Shown piece by piece: positions 18,359-53,023 of a stretch of 64,000 nucleotides of DNA. Under the pieces are notes generated by a model. That model saw only the letters and a program-made list of their open reading frames with translations, searched no databases and was not told the origin of the DNA. The first letter of the stretch is position 1, and each line of letters begins with the position of its first letter. The position numbers and the translations under genes were made by a program. Origin of the DNA: an uncultured Chloroflexia bacterium (GTDB taxonomy: Bacteria; Chloroflexota; Dehalococcoidia; GIF9; UBA5629); contig CAWAQY010000001.1 in the NCBI GenBank assembly GCA_963784375.1, positions 140,486-204,485 of the forward strand, given 5' to 3'.

Positions 18359-19861
18359 GTGAATAATTTGAAAATATTGTTAGTCTATCCCCAATATCCA
18401 GATACTTTCTGGAGTTTTAAACATGCCCTGAAGTTCATCTCTAAGAAAGCAGCTTTCCCACCTCTGGGACTGCTCACTGTGGCCGCCATGCTTCCCAAGG
18501 AATGGGATAAAAAATTAGTCGACCTGAATGTATCCACACTTAACGATAAGGATATCAAATGGGCTGATTATGTTTTTATCAGCGCTATGGCTGTTCAAAA
18601 GGAATCAGCTAAAAAGGTAATCAGCAGGTGCAAGAAACTGGAGGCCAAAACCGTTGTTGGCGGACCACTATTTACCGCCGAACGTGAAGAATTCCAGGAA
18701 GCAGACCATTTAGTACTTAACGAAGCAGAGCTCACACTTGCTCCTTTCCTGGAGGACTTAAAAAACAACTGTGCCAAACATGTGTATACTTCAGACATAT
18801 TCCCTGAGATAAATGATACTCCGATACCAGCCTGGGAGCTTATCAATCCCAGGAAATATTCCTCTTTGAGCCTGCAGTACTCACGAGGTTGTCCTTTTGA
18901 CTGCGAGTTTTGCGACATCGTAGTTCTCAACGGACACAGGCCCAGGACCAAAGATAAAGCTAATGTAATCAAAGAGCTCGATGCAATCTACAATAAAGGC
19001 TGGAGAAACAGCGTCTTTATCGTCGATGATAATTTTATCGGGAATAAGAAAAAACTAAAATCTGAAACCCTTCCTGCAATAATCGAATGGATGGAACAAA
19101 AAAAATATCCATTCCCATTTGTCACGGAAGCATCAATAAACCTGGTTGATGATGAAGAGCTTGTAGCATTAATGGTTAAGGCCAATTTTGACACGGTCTT
19201 CATAGGTATCGAAACACCAGATGAAGGAAGCCTTGCAGAATGCGGCAAATCTCAGAACGAAAATCGCGATATGGTGGCCGCCGTTAAGAAGCTTCAGAAC
19301 CTCGGTTTACATATATATGGTGGATTTATTGTTGGTTTTGATAATGATCCGGTTTCGATATTTGAAAATCAGATCAATTTCATACAGAAAAGTGGTATCG
19401 TCACCGCTATGGTCGGATTGCTAAATGCACCCAATGGTACCAAACTCTATAAGAGGCTTCAGAAAGAGAACAGGCTTGTGAAGAGTTTCTCGGGTAATAA
19501 CACTGATTTTTCTATGAACTTCATCCCCAAGATGAATTACGAAACATTGATAAACGGTTATAAAAATATTGTCCAGACCATCTATTCTCCAAAAAAGTAT
19601 CACGAGCGGGTTAAAAATTTCCTCAGAGAATATAAACCCCGGGCAGGTAAAGTACCCAATTTCCCCATAGAGTATATTCAAGCCTTTGCACAGGCGACCT
19701 GGATATTGGGTATAAAAGAAAAGGGAAGGCAATACTACTGGAAATTGTTAGCATGGACACTGTTTAAACATCCGCGTTCGCTGGTAATGTCAGTAACGTT
19801 AGCGATATACGGCTTTCATTTTCGAAAAGTAGCCGAGGGCTATGGTAAGAGCTCTCTATAG
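18359..19861 (+). CDS. B12-binding-domain radical SAM protein (class B, DUF4070-type C-terminus)
   Basis: N-terminal cobalamin-binding-like domain (ILLVYP...PPLGLL...), radical SAM CPFDCEFC (CxxxCxxC). 500 aa, GTG start after aaggtaagg. Confidence 0.8.
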   Translation: MNNLKILLVYPQYPDTFWSFKHALKFISKKAAFPPLGLLTVAAMLPKEWDKKLVDLNVSTLNDKDIKWADYVFISAMAVQKESAKKVISRCKKLEAKTVVGGPLFTAEREEFQEADHLVLNEAELTLAPFLEDLKNNCAKHVYTSDIFPEINDTPIPAWELINPRKYSSLSLQYSRGCPFDCEFCDIVVLNGHRPRTKDKANVIKELDAIYNKGWRNSVFIVDDNFIGNKKKLKSETLPAIIEWMEQKKYPFPFVTEASINLVDDEELVALMVKANFDTVFIGIETPDEGSLAECGKSQNENRDMVAAVKKLQNLGLHIYGGFIVGFDNDPVSIFENQINFIQKSGIVTAMVGLLNAPNGTKLYKRLQKENRLVKSFSGNNTDFSMNFIPKMNYETLINGYKNIVQTIYSPKKYHERVKNFLREYKPRAGKVPNFPIEYIQAFAQATWILGIKEKGRQYYWKLLAWTLFKHPRSLVMSVTLAIYGFHFRKVAEGYGKSSL

Positions 19862-21139: not shown

Positions 21140-21362
21140 ATTTTGTGACACTTTTTCCCGTCTTACAGTTTGCTGCAGTCAAGATAATTAATCCTTATTT
21201 CAAATTTGCAAACGGTAAGCGCACCAAAACCAGGTAAAAGACGACCAGGACTCAATCGCCTTTCGACATCAGAGATATTTGCACACCTTTTAAATTAATT
21301 AATGTGAATAATGGATGTGAATAATTTGCTGTTGGATAAGTAGGCTTGTGGAATTATTGAAT

Positions 21363-21986
21363 TCAGAATCTATTCTTTTCAGCAATAGATTCACGAAAAA
21401 CGTTCCAAAGCCTTGAATATTTCTCTTCCAGATTAAAATCGTAGTTGCTCAACGACCAGATATTTACCAGCCCCTGGATCATTCCGAACAGAATTAGTGC
21501 GGCTGCTTCAATATCTACATCCTCTTTGACCTCTCCGGTCTTTATCCCTTCGGATAATAGATGTTTTAAGCCGATGACATAGTTATTTATGACCACAGAA
21601 ACCTTTTTGTTTAGCTTTTTTTCCCCAAAACTGATAATTTCAGCTATAACCTGAAAAGATATACCTTTTTTTTGCTGTATGCGTGACAAATGATTCTTTA
21701 AGACAGTATCTAGAAATTCCAGCGAAGTGGAGTTTGTATAAATATGCTTATTGATATCCCCCAGAAGGTCATCTGCAATACGGTCAGCCAATCCAGACAA
21801 AACGTCGCTTTTACTTTTAAAATGCCGATAAATAGCACCCTCAGATATACCAACTTCTTTGGCAATTTTCCCAACGGTTACGTGTTCGCTACCGTATTTA
21901 ACTACCAGCTTCCGAGAAGCATCTATTATCTGGTCTTTCCTGATTGCTGAACTCAAGTGTATTCTACCATCTCCACATCTAAACAC
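21363..21986 (-). CDS. TetR/AcrR family transcriptional regulator
   Basis: N-terminal HTH: VTVGKIAKEVGISEGAIYRHFKSK. About 200 aa, all-helical. Confidence 0.8.
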   Translation of the reverse strand: MFRCGDGRIHLSSAIRKDQIIDASRKLVVKYGSEHVTVGKIAKEVGISEGAIYRHFKSKSDVLSGLADRIADDLLGDINKHIYTNSTSLEFLDTVLKNHLSRIQQKKGISFQVIAEIISFGEKKLNKKVSVVINNYVIGLKHLLSEGIKTGEVKEDVDIEAAALILFGMIQGLVNIWSLSNYDFNLEEKYSRLWNVFRESIAEKNRF

Positions 21987-22014
21987 TTTTTATCCTTGAA
22001 TTACGACTTAAAAG

Positions 22015-22132
22015 CCTCTTGACAAATTTTCATTTTATGTTATTATTTATGTAAGTGAATAATTACTTATTAGTATGTTAATGTTTACTTATTATATATA
22101 TTTTTACTAGTTATTTGTCAAGTAGCAAGAGG
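22015..22132. promoter_or_regulatory. Intergenic control region: inverted repeat cctcttgacaaat ... atttgtcaag(tagca)agagg carrying two facing promoters
   Basis: Plus strand: TTGACA 22019-22024, N16, TATTAT 22041-22046. Minus strand: TTGACA 22121-22116, N17, TATATA 22098-22093. The two -35 boxes lie in the two arms of the inverted repeat. Confidence 0.4.
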
Positions 22133-22137
22133 TTTCA

Positions 22138-22420
22138 ATGATGGGATTATTTAAAAAGAAAATAATAAAGGAAATCCCTGGGGGAGCCTGGGGACATTTA
22201 ATATATGCACACAAAATGGACGTTGATATCCTCGCTAGAGATATACGCTGTGTCGAACGTGAAGGACTCCTTGAAGGTAAATGGAAGGTACGTTTTCTCC
22301 GAGTTTTCAGCTTATCAGAAACAAAGGAGAAGGGGATAGCAATTGAGCGGATGGGAGACTTTTGACCAGCATCCCGAGTTAATACTCTTCGAAGGCTATT
22401 GGCAGGAATATTACAAATGA
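22138..22420 (+). CDS. Hypothetical protein (about 93 aa), frame break near 22340
   Basis: The 75-aa ORF continues in another frame as GWETFDQHPELILFEGYWQEYYK*. Confidence 0.45.
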
Positions 22421-22486
22421 GGCAAATCTTCAACGGAAAAGAACAATTGAATAATTTGTTTTAGATTGAAAGGAGAACAGGAAAAA

Positions 22487-22670
22487 ATGTCACAACAAAA
22501 TACACCAGAACAAAAGAAGCCTGAAATAAAGGTTGGAGAAGAAATAAAAAAGTCAAAAGGGTTCTGGGGAAAATTTATGACATTTCTTGATGATGGGTGG
22601 GTTCATTGTGGTTCTTATTGTCGCTGTTGGGTTGATGATTGCCATTTCGTTGATATTTAAGTGCAAATGA
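22487..22670 (+). CDS. Small membrane protein, frame break near 22590
   Basis: ATG 22487 after aaggaga. The C-terminal hydrophobic helix MMGGFIVVLIVAVGLMIAISLIFKCK* is read in a shifted frame. Confidence 0.4.
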
Positions 22671-22942
22671 AGATGTTCATTATTGTTCCGGATAAACCAC
22701 TCATTGCTGAGATTGGATACATATGATTATTTACTAAAACCTGGATAAGTATGAGCGATAAAGATAAGTCATTGATTTTATTGAGTATTTTTCTGCATTA
22801 ATATGACACGAGAATCCTTGAGGGCATCTACGATTTCAAAATCGTTCGTTTCAAACAATTTCCCGTATTGAAATGACTGCTGATATCTACACCAGATAGC
22901 CCGTTTAATTGGAACACAAACCCCGGGGTTTACTAAAACATC

Positions 22943-22965
22943 CTACAATATATTAATATATGTAG
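22943..22965. promoter_or_regulatory. AT-rich palindrome abutting the otsA RBS (candidate TetR operator or mRNA hairpin)
   Basis: ctac-a-ATATATTAATATAT-gtag. The 14-bp core is a perfect palindrome. GAGGAG follows immediately and the GTG start is at 22980. Confidence 0.4.
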
Positions 22966-22979
22966 AGGAGAATAATTTC

Positions 22980-24455
22980 GTGGCCTGGACAAAAGATGAT
23001 TTACAGCAATTAGTAAAATCCAAGTTAGAGGATTACCTTTTTGTTGTAGTTTCAAATCGAGAACCTTACATCCATATTTCTACCAATGAGGGTATAAAAT
23101 GCCTGATTCCAGCCAGCGGATTAACGGTCGCTCTTGATCCCATAATGCGCACCAGCCATGGTACCTGGATAGCACATGGCAGCGGAGACGCCGACAAACA
23201 GGTGGTTGATATCCACAATAGAGTGATGGTACCACCTGAGGACCCGAGTTATACTTTACGCCGGGTGTGGCTTACAAACGAAGAAGAACAAGGTTACTAT
23301 TATGGTTTTTCCAACGAAGCTCTCTGGCCGCTATGCCACATCGTATACACAAGACCTCTTTTTGATGAAGGAAATTGGAACACTTACAAACATGTAAATC
23401 AACTTTTTGCGGATGCTATTTTAGATGAAATTGATGGCCGCAAGGCATTTGTTTTTATTCAGGACTATCATCTGTCCTTATTATCTCAGTTGATAAAAAA
23501 GGAAAATCCGAATGTAATCACAGCTCAATTCTGGCATATTCCCTGGCCAAATCGAGAAGCTTTCCGCATCTGCCCATGGCATGAAGAAATCCTCCACGGT
23601 CTATTGGGCAATGATCTCCTTGGTTTTCATCTCCGTTATCACTGTAACAATTTTCTGGATACTGTAGACCGGCTAATTGAAGCAAAAGTTGACTGGGAAA
23701 GATATGAGGTAACCTGCGGCGGAAAGAAGACAGCAGTGCGTCCATTCCCGATAAGCGCTGATTTTGAAAAAATCTCCGAGGCAGCAATACAAAAGGAAGT
23801 AACTGCGGAAATTGATGTTATACGCAATCAATGGAAAATTAAAAACGAAATAATTGGAATTGGAACAGACAGGATAGATTATACTAAAGGCATTCCTGAC
23901 AGGCTCAAAGCTCTGGACAAGTTGTTCCTAAACTACCCTGAATATAAGAATAACCTGGTCTTTTTCCAGCTATCAGCTCCTAGCCGCACAGACATCCAGA
24001 GGTATCGAGAGCTAAATGCTGAGATTGACAGCCTGGTTGAAGATATAAACGAAAGACACAAATCAGGAGATTGGATACCTATTATTCACATTAAAGGGCA
24101 TCAATCTCATCACCAACTTTTAGCATTCAACCGACTGGCTAACTTTTGCATCGTAAGTTCCCTGCACGATGGTATGAATTTAGTTGCCAAGGAATTCGTT
24201 TCCAGCAGAACCGACAATGATGGTGTCCTGATACTGAGCCGTTTCACCGGTGCCGCAAGGGAATTAGAAGAAGCTCTACTGATTAATCCTTATGATCTTG
24301 GCGATATTACCGAAGCGATAAGGAGCGCTATTGAGATGCCGAAAGAAATGCGGAAAAAACGAATGAAGAAAATGCGGAAAAAAGTGGAGGAAAACAACAT
24401 ATACAAATGGGCAGGTGATATTATCTCAGAACTAACCAGCCTCGGTTCTGCATAA
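22980..24455 (+). CDS. otsA: Trehalose-6-phosphate synthase (GT20)
   Basis: VVSNREPY, GGL..AL, FWHIPWP, LL..DL.GF, GVDR.DY.KGI, LHDGMNLVAKEF. 491 aa. Confidence 0.85.
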   Translation: MAWTKDDLQQLVKSKLEDYLFVVVSNREPYIHISTNEGIKCLIPASGLTVALDPIMRTSHGTWIAHGSGDADKQVVDIHNRVMVPPEDPSYTLRRVWLTNEEEQGYYYGFSNEALWPLCHIVYTRPLFDEGNWNTYKHVNQLFADAILDEIDGRKAFVFIQDYHLSLLSQLIKKENPNVITAQFWHIPWPNREAFRICPWHEEILHGLLGNDLLGFHLRYHCNNFLDTVDRLIEAKVDWERYEVTCGGKKTAVRPFPISADFEKISEAAIQKEVTAEIDVIRNQWKIKNEIIGIGTDRIDYTKGIPDRLKALDKLFLNYPEYKNNLVFFQLSAPSRTDIQRYRELNAEIDSLVEDINERHKSGDWIPIIHIKGHQSHHQLLAFNRLANFCIVSSLHDGMNLVAKEFVSSRTDNDGVLILSRFTGAARELEEALLINPYDLGDITEAIRSAIEMPKEMRKKRMKKMRKKVEENNIYKWAGDIISELTSLGSA

Positions 24456-24468
24456 ACAGGCATTTTTT

Positions 24469-25270
24469 ATGCAATATCTTTTAGATGCTTGGGAATATAT
24501 TAGTAATAGAATAAAAAATGCCCGGCAAACGCTCATCGTCTTTGATTTTGATGGAACCTTAACTCCCATAATGGACACACCTGAAATGGTGAAACTAAGT
24601 GAAGATATGAAGGAGCTCCTGAGAAATCTAGCAAAACACCGTGGTTTTACAGTTGCTATTGTGAGCGGTAGAGCAATCAATGATATTCGGAACAAAGTAG
24701 CAATTTCGGAAGTGATCTATGCTGGTAATCATGGACTCGAGATTGTTGGGCCTAATATGAGTTTTGTTCACCCTATCGCTGAAGAAATCAGGCCAATATT
24801 GCGAATTTTAGGGATTATTTTAAAAAAAACACTCGGTGCATTCAAAGGGACTGCGGTCGAAGATAAAGGTGTTACTCTAACCGTTCACTATCGCCTCGCC
24901 AGATGAAGATCAATTGGACTATATAAAAAGTACGGTAAATAATACAGTTGGACCCGCTAAAGTGCTCGGCAAAGTGAGGACTAGTACGGGCAAGAAAGTG
25001 ATTGAAGTCAGGCCCGCGGTTCCATGGGATAAAGGGAAAGCGGTAAAATTCATTATGAAACGCAAGGCCAGAGGAGGCAGAGAGAGCGGACTTCTTCCTA
25101 TTTATATTGGTGATGATTTGAGCGACGAAGATGCTTTTGAAGTTATTGAACGCTATGGTGGTATTGCTGTGTATGTTGGCCAAGAATACACCCATTCAAT
25201 AGCAAACTATTTTCTAAGATCAACTTCAGAAGTAGAAGATTTCATTAGAAAATTACTGTCATTAAATTAA
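24469..25270 (+). CDS. otsB: Trehalose-6-phosphate phosphatase (HAD), frame break near 24899
   Basis: FDFDGTL (DxDxT), AIVSGR, EVRP..WDKG.A, GDD.SDEDAF. The two ORFs join as ...HYRLA-DEDQLDYIK.... Confidence 0.8.
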
Positions 25271-25279
25271 GGAATTAAC

Positions 25280-26653
25280 ATGGTTGAATGGTTGAACGAA
25301 AATTGGACAATTTTAACTGTACCCATTGTTGTATTTCTAGCTTTCTGCATTATTGCTATATGGGCCAGGAAACTCTTGTACGATTACTTAAACATTTGGT
25401 CTGTTAAAACCAAGTGGGAAGGCCGCTACGTAATTCTGGAAACGCTGAGAACTCCATTCTTTCAATGGTGTTTGCTTCTGGGTGCTTATATTGCAATGCT
25501 GCTTTCTACCCTGTCACAAGAAGGCAAAGACCTTGCAAGCACAGTTCTGGCTTCGCTCTTCATCGTTTCTTTAGGATGGTGCATCCTTTCAATTGCGGAA
25601 AAGCTCATTCGAATTTATGTTAATCGTTTGAAAATTCCGCCATTGTCAATCAGATTAATAATCGGCATAGTGCGGGTTATTATCCTGTCAGTGAGCCTAC
25701 TCATGATTATTGATGTTTGGGGAGCTCCAGTGACCTCATTGCTGCTGCTAATTGCCGCCTTAATATTGATAGCAGTGGTTGCCTCGCGCGATACTTTACT
25801 TAATATTTTCGCAGGACTGCAGCTAGCTACAGGTGATGCGATTAAGACTGGTGATTACATCAAGTTAGAATCTGGAGATGAGGGTTATGTAATGCAAATA
25901 GCATGGAGAAGCACGAGAATCAAAACTCTCGATGACAAACTTATATTATTACCTAACAGCAAATTAATCCAGAATACAGTTGTCAATTATGGGCATCCGC
26001 TTAAGAAAGCAACTCAACCATTCAAATTTTATACCAGGTTCCACTTGAAGGAATTGACCGGCCTTAAAGCCAACAGCCTCTCGCAACTTAAAACCATATT
26101 AGAAAAAGCTCCTGACGCTGCGATCTATTATCATACTCACCATTTTTTAGAAGAATTCAAATATTTGGAACCTGAACCTGCTAATGATTTTGCTTTGTGG
26201 GTGGATGATGCCCTCGGAGATGCAGTCCTGTCAGAAAAGTTGGCAAGTATCGATACCTTTCAGTTTTCAACCATAAATTCTCTTAAACGGAGGATAACCG
26301 AAGTAATCGGGGAATATCTGTCCACCAAACCGGATGAACATATTGCACCTCAGGGTAATGAATTCCACTTTATTAAATCAATAAGTATCGTCCTGCCCAC
26401 GCCTTATGTGGCTCACGATTTAAGAGAATTTGTCGAAGTATTAAGGAAGGTAACTATATATTCCATCTATTTCCATGTCTTCGAAGCTCGCCTTAGATTG
26501 CATACAGGTAATAACGATTTTTCTGCATGGTTTCGAGATAGTTTAGGAGAGAATGATCTGGCTGACAAGATTTCAGAACTTGACCCATATGCCCGATCGT
26601 TGGAATCGTTGAGATCCATGATTATTCAGCAGATCGAGAAACGTATTAAATAA
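25280..26653 (+). CDS. MscS-type mechanosensitive channel fused to a tandem pair of ~105-aa domains of unknown function
   Basis: MscS TM3/beta-domain pattern (NIFAGLQLATGDAIKTGDYIKL..G.EGYV..I..RSTRIKT.D...I.LPNSKL). Residues from about 245 to 457 form two mutually similar units (F.F...L.E....L......IY.H....NDF..W..D.LG...L...I...D....SL..LR..I). Confidence 0.7.
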   Translation: MVEWLNENWTILTVPIVVFLAFCIIAIWARKLLYDYLNIWSVKTKWEGRYVILETLRTPFFQWCLLLGAYIAMLLSTLSQEGKDLASTVLASLFIVSLGWCILSIAEKLIRIYVNRLKIPPLSIRLIIGIVRVIILSVSLLMIIDVWGAPVTSLLLLIAALILIAVVASRDTLLNIFAGLQLATGDAIKTGDYIKLESGDEGYVMQIAWRSTRIKTLDDKLILLPNSKLIQNTVVNYGHPLKKATQPFKFYTRFHLKELTGLKANSLSQLKTILEKAPDAAIYYHTHHFLEEFKYLEPEPANDFALWVDDALGDAVLSEKLASIDTFQFSTINSLKRRITEVIGEYLSTKPDEHIAPQGNEFHFIKSISIVLPTPYVAHDLREFVEVLRKVTIYSIYFHVFEARLRLHTGNNDFSAWFRDSLGENDLADKISELDPYARSLESLRSMIIQQIEKRIK

Positions 26654-26665
26654 AGGAATTGAATC

Positions 26666-27907
26666 ATGACAACAATGACAAACCTCCCAGCTAAAATACA
26701 GGATTATCAACCCATTGTGGGCAAAAATACCATTGACGAATTACGTATGCTTGCAGATAAGCTCAGAGGGAAGGTCATTAACAATATAAATTCAACATTT
26801 TCCGGTGGAGGTGTTGCTGAGATTTTAACCCGCATGGTTCCGCTTCTAACTCAACTGGGAGTCGACGCACGCTGGAACATTATCCAGGGAAATGCTACAT
26901 TTTTTGAAATTACCAAGAAATTCCACAATGCTTTTCATGACAGAACTGAGAATATAACAAAGGAAGACTTTTCGATTTTTCTGGAAGTTACCCAGAAGAA
27001 CATCGAAGAACTTAAATTGCACGGAGACGTATTTTTTATTCATGATCCACAACCGGTGGCTTTAATAAGTAATAAGGAAAAGCTAGGCGGCAAATGGATT
27101 TGGAGATGCCATATAGATATTTCCAAACCACAACAAAATGTGTGGGAATTCTTCCGTAATTATGTAATTAAATATGATGCTGCGGTATTTTCAGCCCCCA
27201 GTTTTGCTCAGCAATTGCCCATCCGGCAATTTATGATATCGCCTTCTATTGATCCGTTGAGTGATAAAAACAAGGACCTGTCTCAGGAAGCAATAGATGC
27301 AGTGCTTGATAACTATGGACTGGACGCAGCGAAACCAATGATCGTGCAAATATCTCGGTTCGACTATTTGAAAGATCCGATTGGAGTAATCGAAGCTTTC
27401 GAAACTGTCAAGAAAACTATAGATTGCCAACTAGTCCTGGCGGGAGGCACTGCCGACGATGACCCGGAATCAGCTAAAGTATTATCAGAAGTTAAAAACC
27501 GGGCTGCTGATAATCCAGACATACACATTTTGCTGATTCCTCCCGATAGCAACATCGAGATTAATGCCCTGCAAAGAGCAGCCACCGTTATCATACAAAA
27601 ATCACTTAAAGAGGGTTTCGGATTAACAATTAGTGAAGCGTTGTGGAAGGGTAAACCTGTAATAGCCAGTGCGGTAGGCGGTATACCTCTTCAAATTAAA
27701 AATCGACTTACAGGTCTACTGTGTTATAGTACTGAGGGTGCAGCTTACGGGTTGAAGCAACTACTAAGCAATCCTGAATATGCTAATAGGCTGGGGAAAA
27801 ATGGACACGAACATGTAAAACAGAATTTCCTGATAACACGACATCTTAAAGAATATATGCTTTTATTTTTAGTACTGGATAATGCATCCGATGTTATTTG
27901 TTTGTAA
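26666..27907 (+). CDS. treT: GT4 glycosyltransferase, trehalose glycosyltransferring synthase (TreT)-like
   Basis: NST..GGGVAEIL...VPL...LGVDARW.II.G...FF..TKK.HN resembles remembered archaeal TreT. C-terminal GT-B E-x7-E region (EGFGLTISEALWKGKPVI). Confidence 0.65.
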   Translation: MTTMTNLPAKIQDYQPIVGKNTIDELRMLADKLRGKVINNINSTFSGGGVAEILTRMVPLLTQLGVDARWNIIQGNATFFEITKKFHNAFHDRTENITKEDFSIFLEVTQKNIEELKLHGDVFFIHDPQPVALISNKEKLGGKWIWRCHIDISKPQQNVWEFFRNYVIKYDAAVFSAPSFAQQLPIRQFMISPSIDPLSDKNKDLSQEAIDAVLDNYGLDAAKPMIVQISRFDYLKDPIGVIEAFETVKKTIDCQLVLAGGTADDDPESAKVLSEVKNRAADNPDIHILLIPPDSNIEINALQRAATVIIQKSLKEGFGLTISEALWKGKPVIASAVGGIPLQIKNRLTGLLCYSTEGAAYGLKQLLSNPEYANRLGKNGHEHVKQNFLITRHLKEYMLLFLVLDNASDVICL

Positions 27908-27985
27908 GTAAATAGAAAATTGGCTTGATACATGTATTGGATAGTTGCGAGACAATGATTAATAATTGGATAGGAGGTAAATACT

Positions 27986-28201
27986 ATGGCAAGTATTGTC
28001 CGTTGGTATGATAAAAAGATAGAAAAGTTAAGACAGTTACCAAAATGTCACCTCCTCCTATTAATAGCGGTCAAGTTTCTCGCTGGGGTGGCATTAGGTT
28101 TGCTGCTGGCAACGTGGTTGCCAATATGGATATGGTGGATATTTCTTGCTATAGCTCTGATAATAGCTATTCCACTTTATAAGACGATTTTCAGCAAGTA
28201 A
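27986..28201 (+). CDS. Small two-TM membrane protein
   Basis: taggaggt RBS 7 nt upstream of the ATG; two hydrophobic helices. Confidence 0.5.
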   Translation: MASIVRWYDKKIEKLRQLPKCHLLLLIAVKFLAGVALGLLLATWLPIWIWWIFLAIALIIAIPLYKTIFSK

Positions 28202-28540
28202 AGTGGCGTTAGTCATAGCGGCTCGAAAAACGTATATTTATTCATGGGGCTAGCGGCGTTCTCTCCTCATCTCTTTGGGTCTACATTTTCCCAACCCACA
28301 TGTTTTTAACATCTAGTGAACAAATAGCTTATTTAAGAGTCGATCCACCAGATTAGCCACAACACATCTCTTAAGCACATCGTCAGTCTCAATGCCTTTA
28401 TATATCTCCTAGTCATCTTCAAGGTTGTATGTTCTAACCTATTGTAACTAAAGCCTCACTAGGTGGAACTAGAGCACTGTACGTTAGTCTCTTTGCGATT
28501 TGAAGAGCCAACTGTGTAAACAAAACGACACACAAATTGC

Positions 28541-28639
28541 TACATCTCGCCCATCACGCCAGTGAAACAGGCGTACTGGATGCAATCAAAAATAGTAGCT
28601 ATATAGAAAGACAATAACCAGTACACCGATAAACAGTTT
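28541..28639 (+). repeat. Right copy of the 99-bp direct repeat (orphan plsX 3' fragment)
   Basis: Same sequence exactly 7500 bp downstream. The frame upstream of it hits a stop at 28501-28503 and shows no plsX similarity. Confidence 0.95.
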
Positions 28640-32076: not shown

Positions 32077-32105
32077 TTGACAAAACGTTTTTAAACGTTA
32101 ATAAT
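32077..32105 (+). promoter_or_regulatory. Promoter with an operator-like inverted repeat in the spacer, upstream of the repeat-peptide gene
   Basis: TTGACA 32077-32082; AACGTTT-tt-AAACGTT at 32084-32099 fills the spacer; TAATAAT begins at 32099. Confidence 0.45.
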
Positions 32106-32282
32106 AATAGTCATTAAATTATCTTATAATTGCTCTCGCGCAAATTTACGTTTAAGCAATAAAGATGGCGGCGAAGGGCAGCAAGTGATAGAATAAAAGA
32201 TAAAAGGGGGTAAAAGGAGAAATCAAATAGACGTAAGATTTCACTTATTTCACTGGATCAATTAATGATTAAGGAAGGAAAA

Positions 32283-32582
32283 ATGAAAAAAGTAATTATT
32301 TTAGTTGTCTGTTTAGTTGTTGCCGCTGTTATCATATTACCCACCGCTATACTTGCTGCAACCTGTGACGGCATCCCCTGGGTGAGCGGCGTAGGCAAAT
32401 ATGAGGGTATTCCCTGGGTCAGTGGTGTGGGTAAGTATGATGGTATTCCCTGGGTCAGTGCTGTAGGCAAGTATGATGGTATTCCCTGGGTCAGTGCCGT
32501 TGGCAAATTTGACGGTATTCCCTGGGTTAGTGCCGTTGGCAAATATGATGGCATTCCCTGGATCAGCGGCGTCTGCAAGTAA
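32283..32582 (+). CDS. Small secreted (possibly lipid-anchored) protein made of six tandem 12-residue repeats DGIPWVSGVGKY
   Basis: aaggaagg RBS 5 nt before ATG 32283. Signal-like N-terminus KKVIILVVCLVVAAVIILPTAILAATC. The repeats differ mostly at synonymous sites. A strong terminator follows. Confidence 0.7.
   Translation: MKKVIILVVCLVVAAVIILPTAILAATCDGIPWVSGVGKYEGIPWVSGVGKYDGIPWVSAVGKYDGIPWVSAVGKFDGIPWVSAVGKYDGIPWISGVCK
32367..32582 (+). repeat. Six head-to-tail 36-nt coding repeats
   Basis: Units start at 32367, 32403, 32439, 32475, 32511 and 32547. The last ends GVCK* instead of GVGKY. Confidence 0.95.
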
Positions 32583-32695
32583 CCTGGAAATCGCAAGCGA
32601 ATAAAAAATTTTCATATTCGCTATTTTTCCTGGCTAGTAAGATTAAACAAGCAATTATTGCCGGGCTATTAGTTTTTTAGATACGAATGTGCTCG

Positions 32696-32737
32696 TTATC
32701 CCTCCCTCATTTGCAATCAGGGAGGGATAATTTTTTT
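32696..32737 (+). terminator. Rho-independent terminator of the repeat-peptide gene
   Basis: 12-bp stem ttatccctccct / agggagggataa, 11-nt loop, T7 at 32731-32737. Confidence 0.85.
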
Positions 32738-32756
32738 GTTGGCTGATCGCGCTTGT

Positions 32757-35492: not shown

Positions 35493-38400
35493 ATGACTTA
35501 TTCTCTGGGAGTCGATATCGGCTCCGTAAACGTAAAAACAGCACTTATTGATGACAACTGCAATGTTGTTTTTTTAGATAGTGAAAAAATCGCTTCCGGG
35601 CCAAAAGCAGCTATCAATTCGCTATTAATCAAAATAAGTAAGAAGTTCAATCACGAACAAATTACCAGTGCGGGTGCATCCTGTTCAGGGAAAACTATAA
35701 TTCCTAAAGAACTCAACTGGGCTGAGAACAGCAGTTCACTATCAATTTCCGCAGGGCTAATCCACTTCCATCCTGACGCAAAGACAATCATACAGATAGG
35801 TGGACAGAGCTCAATTGTCATCGCATTGGAAGACGGGTTGAAGAAACCCTGGAAAACGTTCTCTAATCCCCTCTGTGCAGCAGGTACAGGACGATTTATG
35901 GAACAGCAGGCATACCGATTGGGGATTAGTATGGAGGACTTCGCCACTATGGCTTTAAAATGTCAAGAAAGTCCTCCAAGGATCGCGGCCAGATGTAGTG
36001 TGTTTGCCAAAACCGACTTAATTCACCTGCAGCAAAAAGGTGTTGCCGTCGAAAACATGCTTTATGCACTTTGTGAAAGTATTTCCCGAATGGTTTCTTC
36101 GTTAAACAAAGGAGCTTTTGAGCCTCCTGTATACTTTTTAGGCGGGGTTGCTTCAAACAAAGCCGTGGTAAAAGCACTGAGTGAAGTACTTTCTGCCAAG
36201 AACAGCCATCCACTACAGGTGATTGTACCCGAAAATCATCTCTATATTGAGGCAATAGGGTCGGCATTGCTTTCCAGGGGAAAGCGAGCACAAACTATTT
36301 TGATTCCAGAATCGGACCGGCTGCAAAAGTATTTTGAAATGCCCAAATTGGAAGTGATCTCAGAAAAAAATGATGATTTTGATAAGCTCATAGAAAAACC
36401 GGGCATAGGATACCTGGGAGTTGATGTCGGTTCCACGAGCACTAAAGCCGTCATAGTTGACGATAAAGGTAATGTAATCGCCAAGCACTATCTGATGACA
36501 GCGGGTAGACCGGTTAATGCGGTGAAGGAGGTATTCACAGGCTTACTTAAGAAGGGAGCAGGGAAAACGGAAATTGCGGGCGCAGGGGTTACCGGGTCGG
36601 GAAGATACCTGATCGGTTCCTTGATTGGAGCAGACCTGATCAAAAATGAGATCACGGCACAGACTAGAGCCGCTGCGGATATTGATTCTGAAGCAGATAT
36701 CATAGAAATTGGCGGACAAGATTCCAAGCTAGTCCTTAAAAAAAACGACATCGTCTTCGACTACCAGATGAATAAAGCATGCGCTGCCGGCACGGGGAGT
36801 TTCATAGATGAACTCGCAGAAATGCTCAATATTTCAGTAAAAAACGGGGAATTTGCCAAACTTGCGTTTGAAGCACCCTATACTATTGATTTAGGAACCA
36901 GATGCGCTGCGTTTATGGGACAGGCTGTTTCGCTAGCCCAACAAGAGGGAATTCCATTATCAGTGATAACAGCGAGCCTGGCGAATTCTATTGCCAAGAA
37001 CTATCTATCCAAAGTTGTAGGTAATAGGAAATTGGGGAATAAAGTTATTTTAACTGGTGCCGTTTTTTACAATCAGGCTGTAATTTCTGCATTCAGGCAA
37101 CAGCTTAAAGGAAAAACATTCACGGTAGCCGAACATAAAGAAGTCACCGGAGCTATTGGAGCAGCTTTACTGGCAAAAGAAGACCTGTCAGGGCGTAAAT
37201 CAAATTTCAAAGGATTCCAGGAGGTAGTTGACAGCGAATGTAACCTCTCCTCATTTACCTGCAAAGCATGTGACAATAATTGTACCATCACTCGTCTTGA
37301 AACCAATAAGGAGAAACCAACATTCTACGGGAGCAGATGTGACCGGTATGAAAGTGCTGCAAACCAGAAAAAAACGACTACGTTCTTCGATGAACGAGAA
37401 AAGCTTCTCTTCCGCGAATATATAGAAAATAAAGGGTCTGGACCAAAAGTAGGAATCCCAAGGTCATTATTGATATACGACTATGCCCCGCTTCTTATTG
37501 GTTTTCTCAACAAGCTCGGTGTCAGAGTAAATTTTTCCGGTAAAACAACCAAAGAGATAGTAGAGAAGTCGACACAGCTAAGTTACACCGATAGCTGTTT
37601 CCCTCTTAAGCTTCTTCACGGACACACAGCCAGCCTTTTGGAAAATGACTATATCCTTTATCCCTGCATCATCAGACTTGGGGAAAAAGAAGGAGAGGAA
37701 AATCAGAAATATGCCTGCCCCCTGGTTCAGGCATCACCTTTTATAGTAAATCAGGTACTGGAATTAAAGGGAAAATTATTGGCACCGATATTCGATTTCA
37801 GTCATGGCAATTCTGCAGTCATAAATACGCTTGCAAATACAGCTATTAAAATGGGATTCAACAAGAAAGCAGGAATTCAGGCAGCGCTTGCCGGGATTAA
37901 AGCACAACAGCAATTCGAACTGGATAAAACAGCCCTTGGAGAGAGACTAATTAAACAACTCCACCAAAACAAACAATTAGGAGTCGTAATTTTTGCCCGT
38001 TCTTATATGTCCCAGGATGCAGGAGCAAACCTCAGCATAGCAGAAAAATTGGCTCAGCTGGGAGTTGTTCCCATCCCTCTAGATTTTCTACCCCTTTCAA
38101 CTGTTTCCGCAAATAGATATTCCGATAGGCCTTACTGGCTCTACGAGAACAAACAAATAGCTGGAGCGGTGATAACCAAAGCTGATCCTCAATTGTATGG
38201 TTTAATATTGACAAATTTTGGTTGCGGGCCTAACTCATTTATATTAAGGCTGGTAGAAGATATTATGGGTGATAAACCGTTGGGGCAATTGGAAATAGAT
38301 GAACATGCTGCCGAAGCTGGAATCGTCACCCGCCTCGAAGCCTTCGTTGATACCATCAGCAATTTTGACTCCACGAGGAACTCTGAGGTCCCTTTAACAA

Positions 38401-39623
38401 ATATTTACCGTGGAACGTCAGCATTGATTAATTCTCAAAAGACGCTTCTGATCCCTAAAATGGCTCCTCATTGTGAGGTCATATCGGCTTCAATGGAAGC
38501 GTTTGGAGTCAGGACAATAGTATTGCCGGAACCCGACGAACGCAACCTCCTCTATAGCGAAAAGGTAACTTCGGGAACTGAGTGTTTGCCCTATCGGATT
38601 ACATTAGGCGATTTCATCAGGTTCCACCACGAACACGGACCCGATACCCGAAACTTCGAGGGGTTCGCTGCGGGCTCATACGGCCCTTGTCGATTGGGCA
38701 AGTATTCGATAGAGCAAATCAAAATACTTAAAAACATGGGATTCGACCTGCCAATTCGCACCACCGTATCAAATAACGCCTACAGAGATTTAAACCTCGG
38801 GCCCGGTTTTGAGCGAATCGCCTGGCGCGGTATTGTAGCGATAGATTGTCTCGAAAAATTGGTATGGCGCACCCGTCCTTACGAGAGAATAATAGGGGCA
38901 TCAGAATTACTATTTGCCGAATATGTTAGCAAAATCGCAGAACGCATTCGACTTAAGGAAACTTTCCATAGCGTGTTGAAACAGGCCACCGCCGAATTCA
39001 AAAAGCTTATTTATCTTGATCAACCGCGAAAACCTCTTGTTGGCATTAACGGCGAAATCTACCTACGATCTAATAAATTCAGTAACAGGAATTTGGTAAA
39101 AGTCTGTGAAGATGCCGGACTTGAGGCTGTTGTTTCTCCCCTGGGGGAATGGTTTAAATATACATCGTTCCGGAACTTTGAAGATGCCTGCATCGACCGA
39201 AATTTTAAAAAAATAGTGATCAGTGGTATCAAAAAACATATTCAGGAACATGATGAGCATTCTATCTCTATGGATTGCAGGGCAATCCTGGACACTGAAG
39301 AACCTTCTACATCTGAATTGCTTCGCCTGACAAGTCTCTACCTTTCTCCGAAATGCGGTAGTGAAGCAGTCCTCAGCATCGGTTGCGGGATCAACTGGCT
39401 GGAAAACCCTCGGTTTGCTGGAGTAATTTCAGTGATGCCACACGGTTGCATGCCAGGGGGAATCGTGGCAGCCATGGCAGAAAAATTCAGCTCGCTTTAT
39501 CACAAACCCTGGATCAGCCTTACTTATGATGGCTTTATGGAGACCAACAACCAGTCAAAAATAAACAGTTTCGCTGAGGTAATAAAATATTGTTCAAAAG
39601 AGGTTACTGGGGCCGCCAGATAA
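35493..39623 (+). CDS. Fused 2x BadF/BadG/BcrA/BcrD-type ATPase (HgdC-like activase) plus Cys cluster plus DUF2229/HgdB-like dehydratase-related domain
   Basis: Two ASKHA ATPase units (LGVDIGS.N.K / LGVDVGSTSTK), each with CAAGTG and a second cluster Cys (RCSVFA / RCAAFM). C-x7-C-x2-C-x3-C lies at about aa 583-598. A long C-terminal domain follows. 1376 aa, uninterrupted. Confidence 0.8.
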   Translation: MTYSLGVDIGSVNVKTALIDDNCNVVFLDSEKIASGPKAAINSLLIKISKKFNHEQITSAGASCSGKTIIPKELNWAENSSSLSISAGLIHFHPDAKTIIQIGGQSSIVIALEDGLKKPWKTFSNPLCAAGTGRFMEQQAYRLGISMEDFATMALKCQESPPRIAARCSVFAKTDLIHLQQKGVAVENMLYALCESISRMVSSLNKGAFEPPVYFLGGVASNKAVVKALSEVLSAKNSHPLQVIVPENHLYIEAIGSALLSRGKRAQTILIPESDRLQKYFEMPKLEVISEKNDDFDKLIEKPGIGYLGVDVGSTSTKAVIVDDKGNVIAKHYLMTAGRPVNAVKEVFTGLLKKGAGKTEIAGAGVTGSGRYLIGSLIGADLIKNEITAQTRAAADIDSEADIIEIGGQDSKLVLKKNDIVFDYQMNKACAAGTGSFIDELAEMLNISVKNGEFAKLAFEAPYTIDLGTRCAAFMGQAVSLAQQEGIPLSVITASLANSIAKNYLSKVVGNRKLGNKVILTGAVFYNQAVISAFRQQLKGKTFTVAEHKEVTGAIGAALLAKEDLSGRKSNFKGFQEVVDSECNLSSFTCKACDNNCTITRLETNKEKPTFYGSRCDRYESAANQKKTTTFFDEREKLLFREYIENKGSGPKVGIPRSLLIYDYAPLLIGFLNKLGVRVNFSGKTTKEIVEKSTQLSYTDSCFPLKLLHGHTASLLENDYILYPCIIRLGEKEGEENQKYACPLVQASPFIVNQVLELKGKLLAPIFDFSHGNSAVINTLANTAIKMGFNKKAGIQAALAGIKAQQQFELDKTALGERLIKQLHQNKQLGVVIFARSYMSQDAGANLSIAEKLAQLGVVPIPLDFLPLSTVSANRYSDRPYWLYENKQIAGAVITKADPQLYGLILTNFGCGPNSFILRLVEDIMGDKPLGQLEIDEHAAEAGIVTRLEAFVDTISNFDSTRNSEVPLTNIYRGTSALINSQKTLLIPKMAPHCEVISASMEAFGVRTIVLPEPDERNLLYSEKVTSGTECLPYRITLGDFIRFHHEHGPDTRNFEGFAAGSYGPCRLGKYSIEQIKILKNMGFDLPIRTTVSNNAYRDLNLGPGFERIAWRGIVAIDCLEKLVWRTRPYERIIGASELLFAEYVSKIAERIRLKETFHSVLKQATAEFKKLIYLDQPRKPLVGINGEIYLRSNKFSNRNLVKVCEDAGLEAVVSPLGEWFKYTSFRNFEDACIDRNFKKIVISGIKKHIQEHDEHSISMDCRAILDTEEPSTSELLRLTSLYLSPKCGSEAVLSIGCGINWLENPRFAGVISVMPHGCMPGGIVAAMAEKFSSLYHKPWISLTYDGFMETNNQSKINSFAEVIKYCSKEVTGAAR

Positions 39624-51066: not shown

Positions 51067-51079
51067 ACTGCTTGCCAAG

Positions 51080-53023
<1,944 letters not shown>

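Follow-up and report, generated by a model that had tools for sequence, protein, structure and literature searches.

A candidate family of exported, cysteine-bracketed 12-residue tandem-repeat peptides in uncultured Chloroflexota

Introduction

Repeats of the choline-binding type (Pfam CW_binding_1) span about 20 residues each and accompany catalytic or other domains in the same protein, and their copy number sets the binding valency. The Tenebrio molitor antifreeze protein (TmAFP) requires about 7 coils, every one of them with a Cys ladder. HMW glutenin subunits contain elastomeric, polymerising repeats rich in Gly, Pro and aromatic residues, and their terminal Cys residues could link chains. 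Tandem units also occur in secreted multi-copy precursors, specifically in the fungal Kex2-processed repeat proteins, which include the ustiloxin precursor (PMC7329392). In the sponge PRMP precursors, conserved flanks (FMP...KKQ) surround cores that are often hypervariable (PMC10945851).

Chloroflexota of soil and sediment are abundant and mostly uncultured, and their cell envelopes are poorly understood. Here, we analyzed a small gene located in a 64-kb stretch of DNA from this phylum (the whole stretch is referred to as the window). Like the fungal Kex2 repeat proteins, yeast alpha-factor and PRMP, its product appears to consist of a secretion signal followed by short head-to-tail units.

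Results

The coding sequence for 99 amino acids and a stop codon lies on the + strand of the window, with the ATG at 32283 and the stop codon at 32580-32582. The features of the locus are listed in Table 1. A second, upstream ATG at 32265 was also given by the ORF finder, and 32283 was adopted as the start because of the Shine-Dalgarno sequence AAGGAAGG and the starts of all homologues. The protein is encoded identically on ENA contig L002. The first-pass annotation of this DNA described six 36-nt units (DGIPWVSGVGKY), of which the final one closes with GVCK, and our translations match its listing exactly. Tandem Repeats Finder located the array at 32376-32566 with a period of 36 and 5.3 copies (86% matches, score 256).

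Table 1 Features of the repeat-peptide locus in the window.
Feature	Position	Strand	Basis or remark
Sigma-70-type promoter, TTGACA-17 nt-AATAAT	32077..32105	+	11/12 consensus positions
5' untranslated leader, about 170 nt, inferred	32112..32282	+	-10 box to ATG distance
Shine-Dalgarno-like element (AAAAGGGGGTAAAAGGAGAA), no ORF behind	32203..32222	+	60-80 nt upstream of start codon
Ribosome-binding site AAGGAAGG	32271..32278	+	4-5 nt before ATG; kept in homologues
Coding sequence, 99 aa and stop codon	32283..32582	+	
Predicted Sec-type signal peptide, 25 aa: MKK, 16 hydrophobic residues, PTAILA	32283..32357	+	Architecture by inspection
N-terminal bracket Cys, residue 28	32364..32366	+	Unit position 12 of a virtual "unit 0"; directly precedes array
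Five full 36-nt units, [DE]GIPWVS[GA]VGK[YF]	32367..32546	+	Starts 32367, 32403, 32439, 32475, 32511; Tandem Repeats Finder and translation
Terminal truncated unit DGIPWISGVCK, C-terminal bracket Cys 32574-32576	32547..32579	+	Orthologous across genomes
Proximal terminator-like hairpin with UAUUUUU	32596..32629 (hairpin 32596-32622)	+	-13.8 kcal/mol, z -2.8
Strong intrinsic terminator, 13-bp GC-rich stem then U7	32695..32741 (hairpin 32695-32731)	+	-21.2 kcal/mol, z -3.6

The excess of synonymous change in the + frame indicates a genuine coding sequence, in agreement with the annotation of a gene for a small exported protein made only of repeats. When the pairwise differences between the five full units were summed, the ratio of synonymous to non-synonymous changes was 44:17 in the + frame, compared with 30:32 in the best antisense frame and 7:98 in the other. 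Third codon positions account for 9 of the 12 variable columns of the array. The Nei-Gojobori values within the window array were pS 0.61 and pN 0.07, and the pS/pN values within two other arrays were 0.57/0.07 (L004) and 0.72/0.04 (L015). Units 1 and 2 differ at 9 nucleotides, of which 8 are synonymous and 1 is non-synonymous, exactly as the first-pass annotation had counted, and its suggestion that the peptide rather than the DNA repeat is conserved is borne out by the difference between pS and pN. The gene is real and protein-coding, and its peptide is under purifying selection. The third codon positions of units 1 and 2 share 18% identity over 11 sites; selection for codon scrambling is not claimed, as this value is not significantly below saturation with 11 sites.

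Units 3-5 share 85-94% DNA identity with one another, while the identity of units 1 and 2 to the other units is only 73-88%, and the first two units were considered older because of this difference. The last unit of the window array is 91% identical in nucleotides to that of L003, which in turn is 91% identical to the last units of L012 and L014. This Cys-bearing end unit is the sole unit that is orthologous between genomes (88-100% nucleotide identity). The inner units have no genome-to-genome correspondence, i.e., they are subject to turnover. A 24-residue super-repeat, visible in L003, L015, L010 and P0012, was rejected, as odd copy numbers exist and the synonymous sites do not support duplications of two units. 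Covariation between unit positions was uninformative, and the idea of recognizing hairpin pairing from it did not hold up.

The gene has its own promoter, ribosome-binding site and strong terminator, as annotated, with two hairpins that are each followed by a U tract. None of 200 shuffled sequences folded as well as the hairpin at 32695-32731. A simple terminator scan found none because the loops are longer than 8 nt. TTGACA and a TATAAT-like -10 box are present at the same place in L001, L003, L004, L005-7, L010, L012 and L015, giving near-consensus promoters at the window locus and nine other loci; none was shown on the L014 and L009 contigs. The 5' leader has no Rfam match, and its fold is unremarkable (z -0.8). 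Of 11 loci examined (the window locus plus 10 others), 10 have the motif GAAGG(G/A)GGTGA at a distance of 68-85 nt upstream of the start codon; these include the window and distant family members, and no start codon follows the element at suitable spacing. The element at 32203-32222 may be an mRNA stabilizer similar to STAB-SD, a sequence that is complementary to the 3' end of the 16S rRNA and lies far ahead of the start codon with no ORF behind it (Agaisse & Lereclus 1996, as cited in PMC7509114); it resembles STAB-SD in these respects. With the promoter, this element, the strong ribosome-binding site and the strong terminators taken together, the gene looks highly expressed.

Inspection of the N-terminus, previously annotated as signal-like, revealed the features of a Sec substrate for signal peptidase I: a charged n-region, an h-region and small residues at positions -3 and -1. 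The 3+16+6 architecture of the leader is uniform in 19 of the 20 tabulated members, and the remaining one has a 15-residue hydrophobic stretch. Pro20 and Ala25 are invariant in the family, and PxxxxA is present in all 20. The last three residues of the leader are ILA, ANA, ASA, ALA, AFA and similar (AxA-like), and cleavage after Ala25 is predicted by the -3/-1 rule. A proper lipobox ([LVI][ASTVI][GAS]C) is absent from all 20 tabulated members; the residues preceding the bracket Cys are AAT (window), ESK, DSN, EGS, AAP or QSN, and several members have no Cys there. The leader of the window protein contains a third Cys.

One Cys before the array and one closing it had been annotated, and both were confirmed. 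The N-terminal Cys occupies exactly the same position in 15 tabulated relatives and in P0093 and P0094, and the C-terminal Cys is the penultimate residue of the window protein, at position 10 of the last unit. The bracket is found at the same unit positions in the window protein, L001, L003-L006, L010, L012, L014-L016, P0005, P0009, P0011, P0018, P0093 and P0094. One or both Cys are missing in about a quarter of the members (P0012, P0022, P0026, P0067, P0088 and L009a), and a disulfide therefore cannot be essential throughout the family.

Exhaustive searches yielded about 25 relatives, all of which are metagenomic, stand-alone proteins of 41-101 residues. They share the leader (MKK, 16 hydrophobic residues and PxxxxA) and units of the form [DE]G[AI]PWxxG[VT]Gx[YF]. 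The three matches in genome collections were each to a Chloroflexota MAG. The exhaustive phmmer search, which covered 1.8 billion representative proteins, gave 86 matches, most of which are unrelated low-complexity 12-mer repeats; P0002-P0004, P0007, P0008, P0013 and others, many of them eukaryotic-looking, were discarded on reading their sequences. P0038, which has 10 copies of DGVTWYTNEGGA ahead of a lipocalin-like domain, is a possible analogue only. The metagenome pattern match L013 was a false positive, and P0090 (572 aa) is unrelated, though it falls in the 90% cluster of P0017. Domain fusions were found neither in this search nor in two profile searches, one of them with the repeat only.

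Scans of the window protein and 8 relatives against Pfam, NCBIfam and PHROGs returned noise only. In particular, Pfam including CW_binding_1 (PF01473) gave no match at E<=10 for the window protein and at E<=1 for the 8 relatives, and the match to NCBIfam TIGR04429 (Phr_nterm) had E=1.1 and 9.9 bits against a 25-bit cutoff. A PDB profile search gave 0 matches at E<=10, a viral-contig scan gave 0 matches, and a literature search on the motif strings and on Chloroflexi repeat proteins gave no match. The earlier impression that no described family has this repeat is consistent with these results. Judged by its sequences, the family is an undescribed one, seen only in uncultured Chloroflexota.

Variation of repeat number among relatives, which the first-pass annotation had proposed to look for, was found: the arrays contain 1 to 6 units. 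Proteins with identical or near-identical leaders have one (L016), two (L005-L008), three (L001) or four (L014) units, and outside these near-identical strains n is 4-6. The proteins flanking the gene are 100% identical between L016 (n=1) and L005 (n=2). Some low copy numbers might reflect collapsed assemblies, which is unlikely for arrays of <=144 nt.

Structure prediction, also proposed at that stage, gave no confident fold. Two AlphaFold2 runs with alignments of 2 and 15 sequences had pLDDT values of 49 and 47 and inconsistent secondary structure. The pLDDT of the array was below 50 in both; regular strands appeared in the first model and the second was mostly coil. In the leader region, residues 2-26 were modelled as a single helix.

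The gene lies among genes for exonuclease III, Usp, a CitMHS transporter, a MobB-C-like 105-aa protein, ferredoxin and Crp. In the window, L003, L005 and L016 it has a syntenic chromosomal position with housekeeping genes around it. The absence of an adjacent maturation enzyme, noted earlier for the window, was confirmed there and in other contexts; no maturation genes adjoin the gene in five different genomic contexts. Co-occurring genes for radical SAM enzymes, peptidases or exporters, suggested as something to seek among relatives, adjoin it in no context, and a lone radical SAM enzyme (B12/DUF4070) lies 12 kb away in the window, beyond housekeeping genes. A receptor, a Rap/RNPP regulator, a TPR/Rap neighbour and a two-component sensor were likewise not found adjacent. 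In some lineages one neighbour is an uncharacterised 345-aa lipoprotein, in three arrangements; the 64-kb window lacks it. This lipoprotein, a DUF1847 protein and a Grx-PDZ protein were not retained as candidate partners, as they are near the gene in the L005 lineage and absent from the window; the Grx-PDZ protein, whose sequence shows no evident signal peptide, was for that reason also dropped as a candidate extracellular oxidase. The hosts look anaerobic, encoding a BcrAD-type activase and ferredoxin oxidoreductases.

Discussion

Our preferred reading, to which we assign a probability of about 0.4, is that the gene produces an abundant extracellular peptide that is cleaved by signal peptidase, closed or dimerised via its two Cys residues, and displays n GxPW motifs, with the valency set by gain and loss of repeats. 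An abundant mini-protein would be exported by Sec, and cleavage by signal peptidase I after the invariant Ala25 would leave the repeat array alone as the mature form, a roughly neutral 74-residue peptide of 7.8 kDa. A disulfide would then join the Cys ahead of unit 1 to that at position 10 of the last unit, either closing the whole array into a loop or stapling two chains antiparallel. In the antiparallel register given by Cys positions 12 and 10, Trp would face Trp, G2 would face G8, and G10 would face Y12, and this register would hold at any copy number. The chance of accidental Trp self-pairing in the Cys-set register is about 1 in 12. Since AlphaFold was not confident, the arithmetic of the Cys positions is the sole basis of the loop or antiparallel-dimer model. 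In addition, extracellular disulfides may be unstable in the habitat of anaerobic hosts.

The functional element would be GxPW...GxGxY, presented n times on an extracellular, protease-resistant peptide rich in Gly and aromatic residues, with a structural, adhesive or ligand-binding role in the cell envelope or matrix. The array would not be cut into 12-mers. Through unequal recombination between units, arrays would gain or lose copies, with a corresponding change in length or valency, and would remain functional; the anchored first and last units would preserve the Cys bracket. Tolerance of n=1-6 fits a variable-valency loop, dimer or polymer, and not a fixed globular fold.

Two readings had been offered in the first-pass annotation, a multi-core RiPP or pheromone precursor cut into identical 12-mers and a 12-residue solenoid. 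The former is weakened and the latter is not supported. As a multi-core RiPP, the protein is weakly supported because its Lys is not conserved, processing motifs are lacking and the gene has no maturase next to it. Bacterial RiPPs do not typically have a Sec leader. In a more general form, which we consider unlikely, the protein would be a multi-copy pro-peptide: unlinked extracellular proteases would cut the exported array into identical 12-mers with a pheromone or other bioactive function, and the copy number would set the dose, a scheme that follows Bacillus Phr peptides, fungal Kex2-processed repeat proteins and sponge PRMP precursors. Cutting after Lys would give Y[DE]GIPWVSGVGK, and cutting after Pro would give WVSGVGKYDGIP, possibly cyclised head to tail. 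Trypsin digestion would by itself also yield the Y[DE]GIPWVSGVGK 12-mers. Such a precursor would account for a signal peptide followed by head-to-tail units whose peptides are near-identical despite near-saturated synonymous divergence, with eukaryotic precedents (PMC7329392, PMC10945851), and for the tolerated variation in copy number. None of the tabulated proteins extends far past its last PW motif (those with the Cys bracket stop at unit position 11), and unit positions 6, 7 and 11 vary between proteins and are mostly uniform inside one protein, resembling pherotypes, which also favors processing.

However, Lys11 is present in only 62% of the units and is otherwise T/Q/E/A/D, and neither a dibasic or other spacer nor conserved flanks around a variable core, as in the sponge precursors (PMC10945851), are found. 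Units differ within a single protein in L010 and P0012, and a complete internal unit is lacking in the n=1 allele. The orthologous Cys-bearing end unit is left unexplained by processing, and the gene has no adjacent peptidase, exporter, Rap/RNPP regulator or two-component sensor. The 345-aa lipoprotein adjoining some relatives could be a processing enzyme or receptor, but it is missing from the window, and the Phr_nterm match is at noise level (E=1.1). The most ambitious version is a shade less likely again, namely a first bacterial Sec-dependent multi-copy peptide signal or bioactive system. There, an unlinked extracellular protease would cut the array after the invariant Pro or at another fixed position, releasing n-1 identical 12-mers that might be cyclised. 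Leader and follower would be the Cys-bearing ends, copy number would set the dose, positions 6, 7 and 11 would confer strain specificity, and the same lipoprotein could be the processing enzyme or receptor.

A Sec-dependent, disulfide-looped antimicrobial (bacteriocin-like) peptide for competition between strains is improbable. The mature products of the relatives are predicted to be small (16-76 residues, 1.7-8.4 kDa), Gly- and Trp-rich and furnished with Cys near both ends, and strain-level variation, a strong promoter and a narrow, patchy family of about 25 members among the 1.8 billion proteins are in line with such a role. Nevertheless, with a pI of 4.1-8.0 in 19 of 20 members (9.3 in P0012 alone), the mature peptides range from neutral to strongly acidic and are not cationic or amphipathic, and the traits of class IIa or Sec-dependent bacteriocins (YGNGV box, cationic mature peptide, adjacent immunity gene) were not found; nor is there an adjacent transporter gene. 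The syntenic site among housekeeping genes in four loci and the absence of any PHROGs or viral-contig link also argue against it.

Slightly more doubtful is an uncleaved hydrophobic N-terminus that would serve as a signal or lipid anchor and tether the array for surface display. The hydrophobic stretch of residues 4 to 25 is long enough to span a membrane, and residues 2-26 were modelled as a single helix, but an invariant, helix-breaking Pro lies 6 residues ahead of the invariant Ala, and the ANA, ASA, ALA, AFA and ILA ends match signal peptidase I sites. For a lipid anchor, the residue before Cys is T/K/N/S/P/G and position -3 is not L/V/I, unlike a lipobox. The mature part of the Cys-free members starts directly with GAPW or DAPW.

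We regard as very improbable a beta-solenoid in which each unit forms one 12-residue coil, as in the Tenebrio antifreeze protein, and the array a rigid surface rod. The period of exactly 12, the Gly residues fixed at positions 2, 8 and 10, the possible aromatic ladders and the regular strands of the first AlphaFold model agree with this idea, but alleles with one to three units, which include close relatives, cannot form a solenoid, an internal Cys ladder is lacking, the array pLDDT was below 50 twice with a second model that was mostly coil, and the PDB profile search gave 0 matches. Judging from the TmAFP structure, the interior of a 12-residue coil is too small for the Trp, Tyr and Ile/Val side chains of each unit. 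Finally, we give almost no credence to a non-coding repeat or a true gene in a minus-strand frame (32258-32596 or 32337-32615): both antisense frames stay open over the array in the window and homologues, which is to be expected when one stop-free unit is repeated, but change is concentrated at third codon positions in the + frame only, and it is the + strand that carries the promoter, ribosome-binding site, leader peptide and terminators, all of them conserved.

An exported, Cys-bracketed peptide of Trp/Gly/Tyr repeats could serve these organisms as an envelope or matrix component, an adhesive or a signal. The natural alleles correspond to synthesisable peptides of 16, 28, 40 and 52 residues. 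Self-assembly via Trp pairing and terminal disulfides, if it occurs, would make the peptide a new minimal building block; processing into 12-mers, if that is its fate, would bring to bacteria the eukaryote-style logic of a signal peptide plus tandem cores. The family merits a database model, as its members are now labelled "hypothetical" or left uncalled.

As in the Kex2 repeat proteins, alpha-factor and PRMP, relatives differ in copy number and keep the peptide sequence. Kex2-type and PRMP precursors have explicit processing motifs between their cores (dibasic KR and FMP...KKQ, respectively), whereas the units of the window family abut with none. The lone basic residue is unconserved, two conserved Cys flank the array, and the host is bacterial. 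Bacillus Phr pro-peptides are similar in their small size, Sec leader, lack of a cytoplasmic maturase and possible extracellular proteolysis; they yield a single active peptide from a gene beside rap, in contrast to an array with no rap/RNPP neighbour. The choline-binding repeats are likewise short, extracellular tandem units rich in Gly, Trp and Tyr with variable copy number, whereas the window family has a period of 12, is stand-alone and has no Pfam match. TmAFP shares the period of exactly 12 residues; in the window family, by contrast, the units number 1-6 and the Cys residues only two in total. HMW glutenin also has one Cys at each end of repeats rich in Gly, Pro and aromatic residues; this is an analogy only, with no sequence relationship, and the window family is far smaller than such elastomeric proteins. 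Tryptophan-zipper hairpins provide a further likeness, again by analogy only, as the Cys-defined register would allow Trp-Trp pairing across strands.

Reading frame and composition of the repeat gene

Translation of the repeat gene gave exactly the protein listed in the first-pass annotation, in which MKKVIILVVCLVVAAVIILPTAILAATC precedes six in-frame 36-nt units. Tandem Repeats Finder reported a period of 36 with 5.3 copies, 86% matches and a score of 256, by far the top repeat of the window. A recount reproduced the 9 nucleotide differences between units 1 and 2, 8 of them synonymous, and third codon positions make up 9 of the 12 variable columns of the array. Pairwise differences summed over the five full units were synonymous to non-synonymous at 44:17 in the + frame, and the Nei-Gojobori values of the window array were pS 0.61 and pN 0.07. 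This synonymous excess and the pS/pN values identify the + frame as coding and show purifying selection on the peptide, as had been proposed. The two antisense frames, both open, gave 30:32 and 7:98, which, set against 44:17, indicates that they are by-products of a repeating stop-free unit. It is hardly credible that the + frame does not hold a gene.

Coordinates of the repeat gene and of features in the window and at related loci (L handles, contigs with relatives of the gene).
Feature	Location	Strand	Remarks
Repeat gene	window 32283-32582	+	ATG start, 99 codons
Open antisense frames	window 32258-32596 and 32337-32615	-	span whole array; also open in homologues
Promoter TTGACA-17-AATAAT	window 32077-32105	+	11/12 matches
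Direct repeat AAACGTT-TTT-AAACGTT	window 32084-32099	+	in promoter spacer
GAAGG(G/A)GGTGA element	window 32203-32222	+	also L001, L003-L007, L009, L010, L012, L014; no ORF after
Ribosome-binding site AAGGAAGG	4-5 nt before ATG	+	read from sequence
Hairpin then U tract	window 32596-32622	+	-13.8 kcal/mol
Hairpin then U tract	window 32695-32731	+	-21.2 kcal/mol; no shuffle folds as well
B12-binding radical SAM, DUF4070	window 18359-19861	+	only radical SAM gene in window; synteny kept in L003, L005
Trehalose block	window ~21300-28600
BcrAD/DUF2229 ORF	window 35493-39623		1376 aa
Fragmented housekeeping genes	window 50787-53023 (-), also 55616-56308, 59853-60416, 60772-61290
Large-type bacterial SRP RNA	window 59240-59502	+	Rfam RF01854, 189 bits
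~345-aa lipoprotein	L016 4044-5081, L006 1532-2569, L012 841-1188, L017 10-1059	- (each)
Corrinoid-ferredoxin fusion	L004 5186-6331 (-); L015 546-1697 (+)		CdhD-like domain with NVWCA[SA]TGG, transmembrane segment, 2x[4Fe-4S] tail
Two divergent tandem paralogues	L009 1270-1554 and ~1719-1979	+	beside DDE transposase
Transposase/integrase-like ORF, 390 aa	L003 8557-9729	-	between exonuclease III gene and repeat gene; insertion vs window/L005

Family members and their architecture

Relatives were gathered by a word-indexed search, an exhaustive phmmer search over 1.84 billion representative proteins, a genome scan, a degenerate pattern scan of metagenome DNA and a cluster look-up, which together yielded ~25 distinct relatives. 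On reading, the majority of the 86 phmmer matches turned out to be unrelated low-complexity 12-mer repeats, many of them eukaryotic-looking, and were dropped. The true members are all stand-alone proteins of 41-101 aa, and a dedicated search found no domain fusions of the repeat. Matches in the genome collection came from three MAGs labelled Chloroflexia, Dehalococcoidales and Chloroflexota. The window DNA, which carries anaerobe-type metabolism genes and an SRP RNA, is 94-97% identical to an ENA contig (L002) encoding the identical repeat protein.

The 25-residue leader consists of MKK (rarely MKR, MRK or MNK), 16 hydrophobic residues (15 in one member) and P-x-x-x-x-A, with Pro20 and Ala25 invariant and AxA-like endings (ANA, ASA, ALA, AFA and ILA). 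This is a predicted classical Sec/signal peptidase I architecture, and no lipobox was found in the family leaders. The mature part starts 0-5 residues past the leader and consists of the array alone (16-76 residues, pI 4.1-8.0, one at 9.3). Across 58 units, the consensus positions are D/E1 (71%), G2 (100%), I/A3, P4 (84%), W5 (94%), G8 (91%), T/V9, G10 (94%) and Y/F12 (92%); positions 6, 7 and 11 are variable, with Lys11 in only 62% of units. The last unit is always shortened, and in roughly three members out of four its end reads G-[VIL]-C-[KQP]-stop; apart from the database protein P0088, these members also have a Cys directly before unit 1. This Cys bracket is missing from P0012, P0022, P0067 and the L009 paralogue L009a (P0006), and P0026 has a single stray Cys; the Cys-free members are a minority branch.

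Repeat number and turnover

The variation in repeat number among relatives that the first-pass annotation suggested looking for was found, with arrays of one to six units: n=6 in the window, L003, L004, L010, L015 and P0012; n=5 in P0018; n=4 in L012, L014, P0005, P0009, P0011, P0093 and P0094; n=3 in L001; n=2 in L005-L008 and P0088; and n=1 in L016. The leader MKKIVIITVALIVAALVLTPAIILAQESKC is identical in n=1, 2 and 4 alleles, and that of L001 is one residue away. Flanking proteins are 100% identical between L016 and L005, and three samples each gave an independent assembly of the n=2 allele. Assembly collapse of the short alleles is unlikely because arrays of up to 144 nt fit inside single reads.

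DNA identity matrices indicated that the Cys-bearing terminal unit is orthologous across genomes. Unit 6 of L003 shares 91% identity with unit 6 of the window and with the final unit of both L012 and L014; unit 4 of L014 and unit 2 of L006 are 100% identical. Inner units resemble adjacent units of their own array (units 3-5 of the window share 85-94% identity with one another). Judged from these orthologous ends and neighbour-like inner units, unequal recombination would create and remove inner units between anchored ends. Because pS is high (0.57-0.72) and pN low (0.04-0.07) within the arrays of the window, L004 and L015, old duplicates evidently keep the same peptide.

Expression signals

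In agreement with the promoter, ribosome-binding site and strong terminator first assigned to the gene, a near-consensus promoter, the binding site and two U-tract hairpins were located. With loops longer than 8 nt, both hairpins escaped a simple terminator scan. TTGACA with a TATAAT-like -10 box is present in the window and nine other loci, with a 5' leader of 150-200 nt in most; no such promoter was seen on the L014 and L009 contigs. The GAAGG(G/A)GGTGA element lies 68-85 nt before the ATG in 10 of 11 loci with no start codon behind it, and L015 has a short leader without it. The element is similar to STAB-SD, an mRNA stabiliser known from Bacillus cry genes (Agaisse and Lereclus, 1996, as listed in PMC7509114). 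The combination of promoter, stabiliser-like element, strong ribosome-binding site and terminators suggests that the mRNA may be stable and abundant. The direct repeat in the promoter spacer of the window is missing from homologous promoters and could be a lineage-specific operator.

Genomic neighbourhood

Gene order is shared by the window, L003, L005 and L016, at ~70% amino-acid identity: CitMHS/ArsB transporter, Usp, exonuclease III (divergent), repeat gene, variable stretch, Crp/Fnr, lipoprotein and BcrAD/DUF2229 activase. Directly downstream of the repeat gene in the window is a convergent gene for a 105-aa protein resembling the MobB/FeS C-terminal domain; a 74-aa protein with two CxxC motifs, which had no family match, and a 2x[4Fe-4S] ferredoxin are also encoded downstream. 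Other members occur in unrelated contexts. L010 is surrounded by small ORFs, and of the two L009 paralogues one is Cys-free, ending in ...GADW, and the other Cys-bracketed (P0018). Neighbours in L004 and L015 are a fused CdhD-like corrinoid/ferredoxin protein, a methyltransferase, a FecR-domain protein and a PAS-GGDEF protein. The fusion is HgcA/HgcB-like and, in these Dehalococcoidales-type loci, adjoins the SAM methyltransferase and is itself directly beside the repeat gene.

In the window and L002, the genes for PlsX and the CitMHS transporter are separated by a block encoding TetR, trehalose-6-phosphate synthase and phosphatase, an MscS-type channel and TreT. Since these two genes are adjacent in L003 and L005, the block is regarded as an osmoprotection island that a single lineage has gained or lost. 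Several housekeeping genes of the window are fragmented: an FtsH-like gene extends over at least four ORFs, and AIR-synthase-like, rRNA adenine dimethylase and GHMP-kinase genes are represented by short pieces. On L002, a near-identical contig, it is the BcrAD/DUF2229 ORF that is broken, into 516 + 744 aa. These patterns suggest either pseudogenes or indel errors of the kind that long-read assemblies often contain.

In none of the contexts examined does the repeat gene have a radical SAM enzyme, peptidase, ABC exporter, Rap/RNPP regulator or two-component system as its neighbour, which upholds the original remark that a neighbouring maturation enzyme is lacking. The radical SAM gene of the window is 12 kb off, with PlsX, the trehalose island, the transporter, Usp and the exonuclease in between, and is probably unrelated. 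The proposed survey of co-occurring genes did reveal, in some lineages, a recurrent ~345-aa lipoprotein encoded close to the repeat gene in three different arrangements (L005/L006-8/L016/L003, L012 and L017); neither the 64-kb window nor the remaining contexts contain it. Its conserved motifs are PPHLLVISPR, ELGGFG, VEEWLHQ, MNETL and RKLNQAYFAF, and no Pfam, NCBIfam or PDB match was obtained. This lipoprotein may be a partner of the repeat peptide, as receptor or processing enzyme.

Nature of the mature product

Conservation of the export signal, GxPW...GxGxY, the fixed Cys positions and the tolerance of any copy number mark the entire mature array as the likely functional species, closed or linked via its two Cys. 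The bracket Cys occupy unit positions 12 and 10, and antiparallel pairing that joins both would give an intramolecular hairpin at n=2 or a doubly stapled homodimer at any n. In this register paired positions sum to 10 modulo 12, placing Trp5 opposite Trp5, G2 opposite G8 and G10 opposite Y12, and the two Cys stand in for exactly one Y12:G10 pair per end. This arithmetic is suggestive only, because the chance of coincidence is ~1 in 12. Our preferred reading, with a probability of about 0.4, is an abundant extracellular Gly/aromatic-rich peptide, disulfide-looped or stapled, that would have a structural, adhesive or binding role in the envelope or matrix and a length or valency tuned by repeat gain and loss.

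The first-pass annotation had offered a multi-core precursor cut into 12-mers. Cutting outside the cell, as in Phr/KEP-like multi-copy pro-peptides, is possible but fits poorly and is considered improbable: a conserved cleavage motif is absent and Lys11 is variable, the units are not alike within some proteins, nothing would come from the n=1 allele, and the Cys-bearing end unit, the most strongly conserved part, would serve no purpose. Bacterial RiPPs generally rely on cytoplasmic maturases and dedicated exporters; a classical RiPP is unlikely here because the leader is a Sec signal and no maturase is linked. A Sec-dependent antimicrobial peptide is quite doubtful, and membrane-tethered display of the array slightly more so. 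The 12-residue solenoid, the other structure initially put forward, is very improbable, since arrays running from 1 to 6 units are incompatible with a solenoid or a closed globular fold, and AlphaFold pLDDT was <50 across the array in two runs. The remaining probability belongs to explanations outside those named.

Comparison with known systems

The family is unannotated and without a detectable relative in curated libraries or the PDB: Pfam, NCBIfam and PHROGs scans and a profile search of the PDB gave no match, and no mention of the repeat motif strings was found in the literature searched, so the initial statement that no described family has this repeat stands. An unrelated-looking secreted protein of 377 aa (P0038) has ten 12-residue 'DG[VA]TWY..EG..' repeats between a signal peptide and a lipocalin-like domain, and could be distantly analogous to the D-G-x-x-W 12-mer, which would there form a stalk. 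We regard the family as a real and solid curiosity that is cheap to test, and not as proof of a new mechanism. As a Sec-exported short tandem-repeat protein it is of an already-known kind; the combination of repeats only, a fixed Cys bracket, n=1-6 among close strains and a conserved stabiliser-like leader is not a known one.
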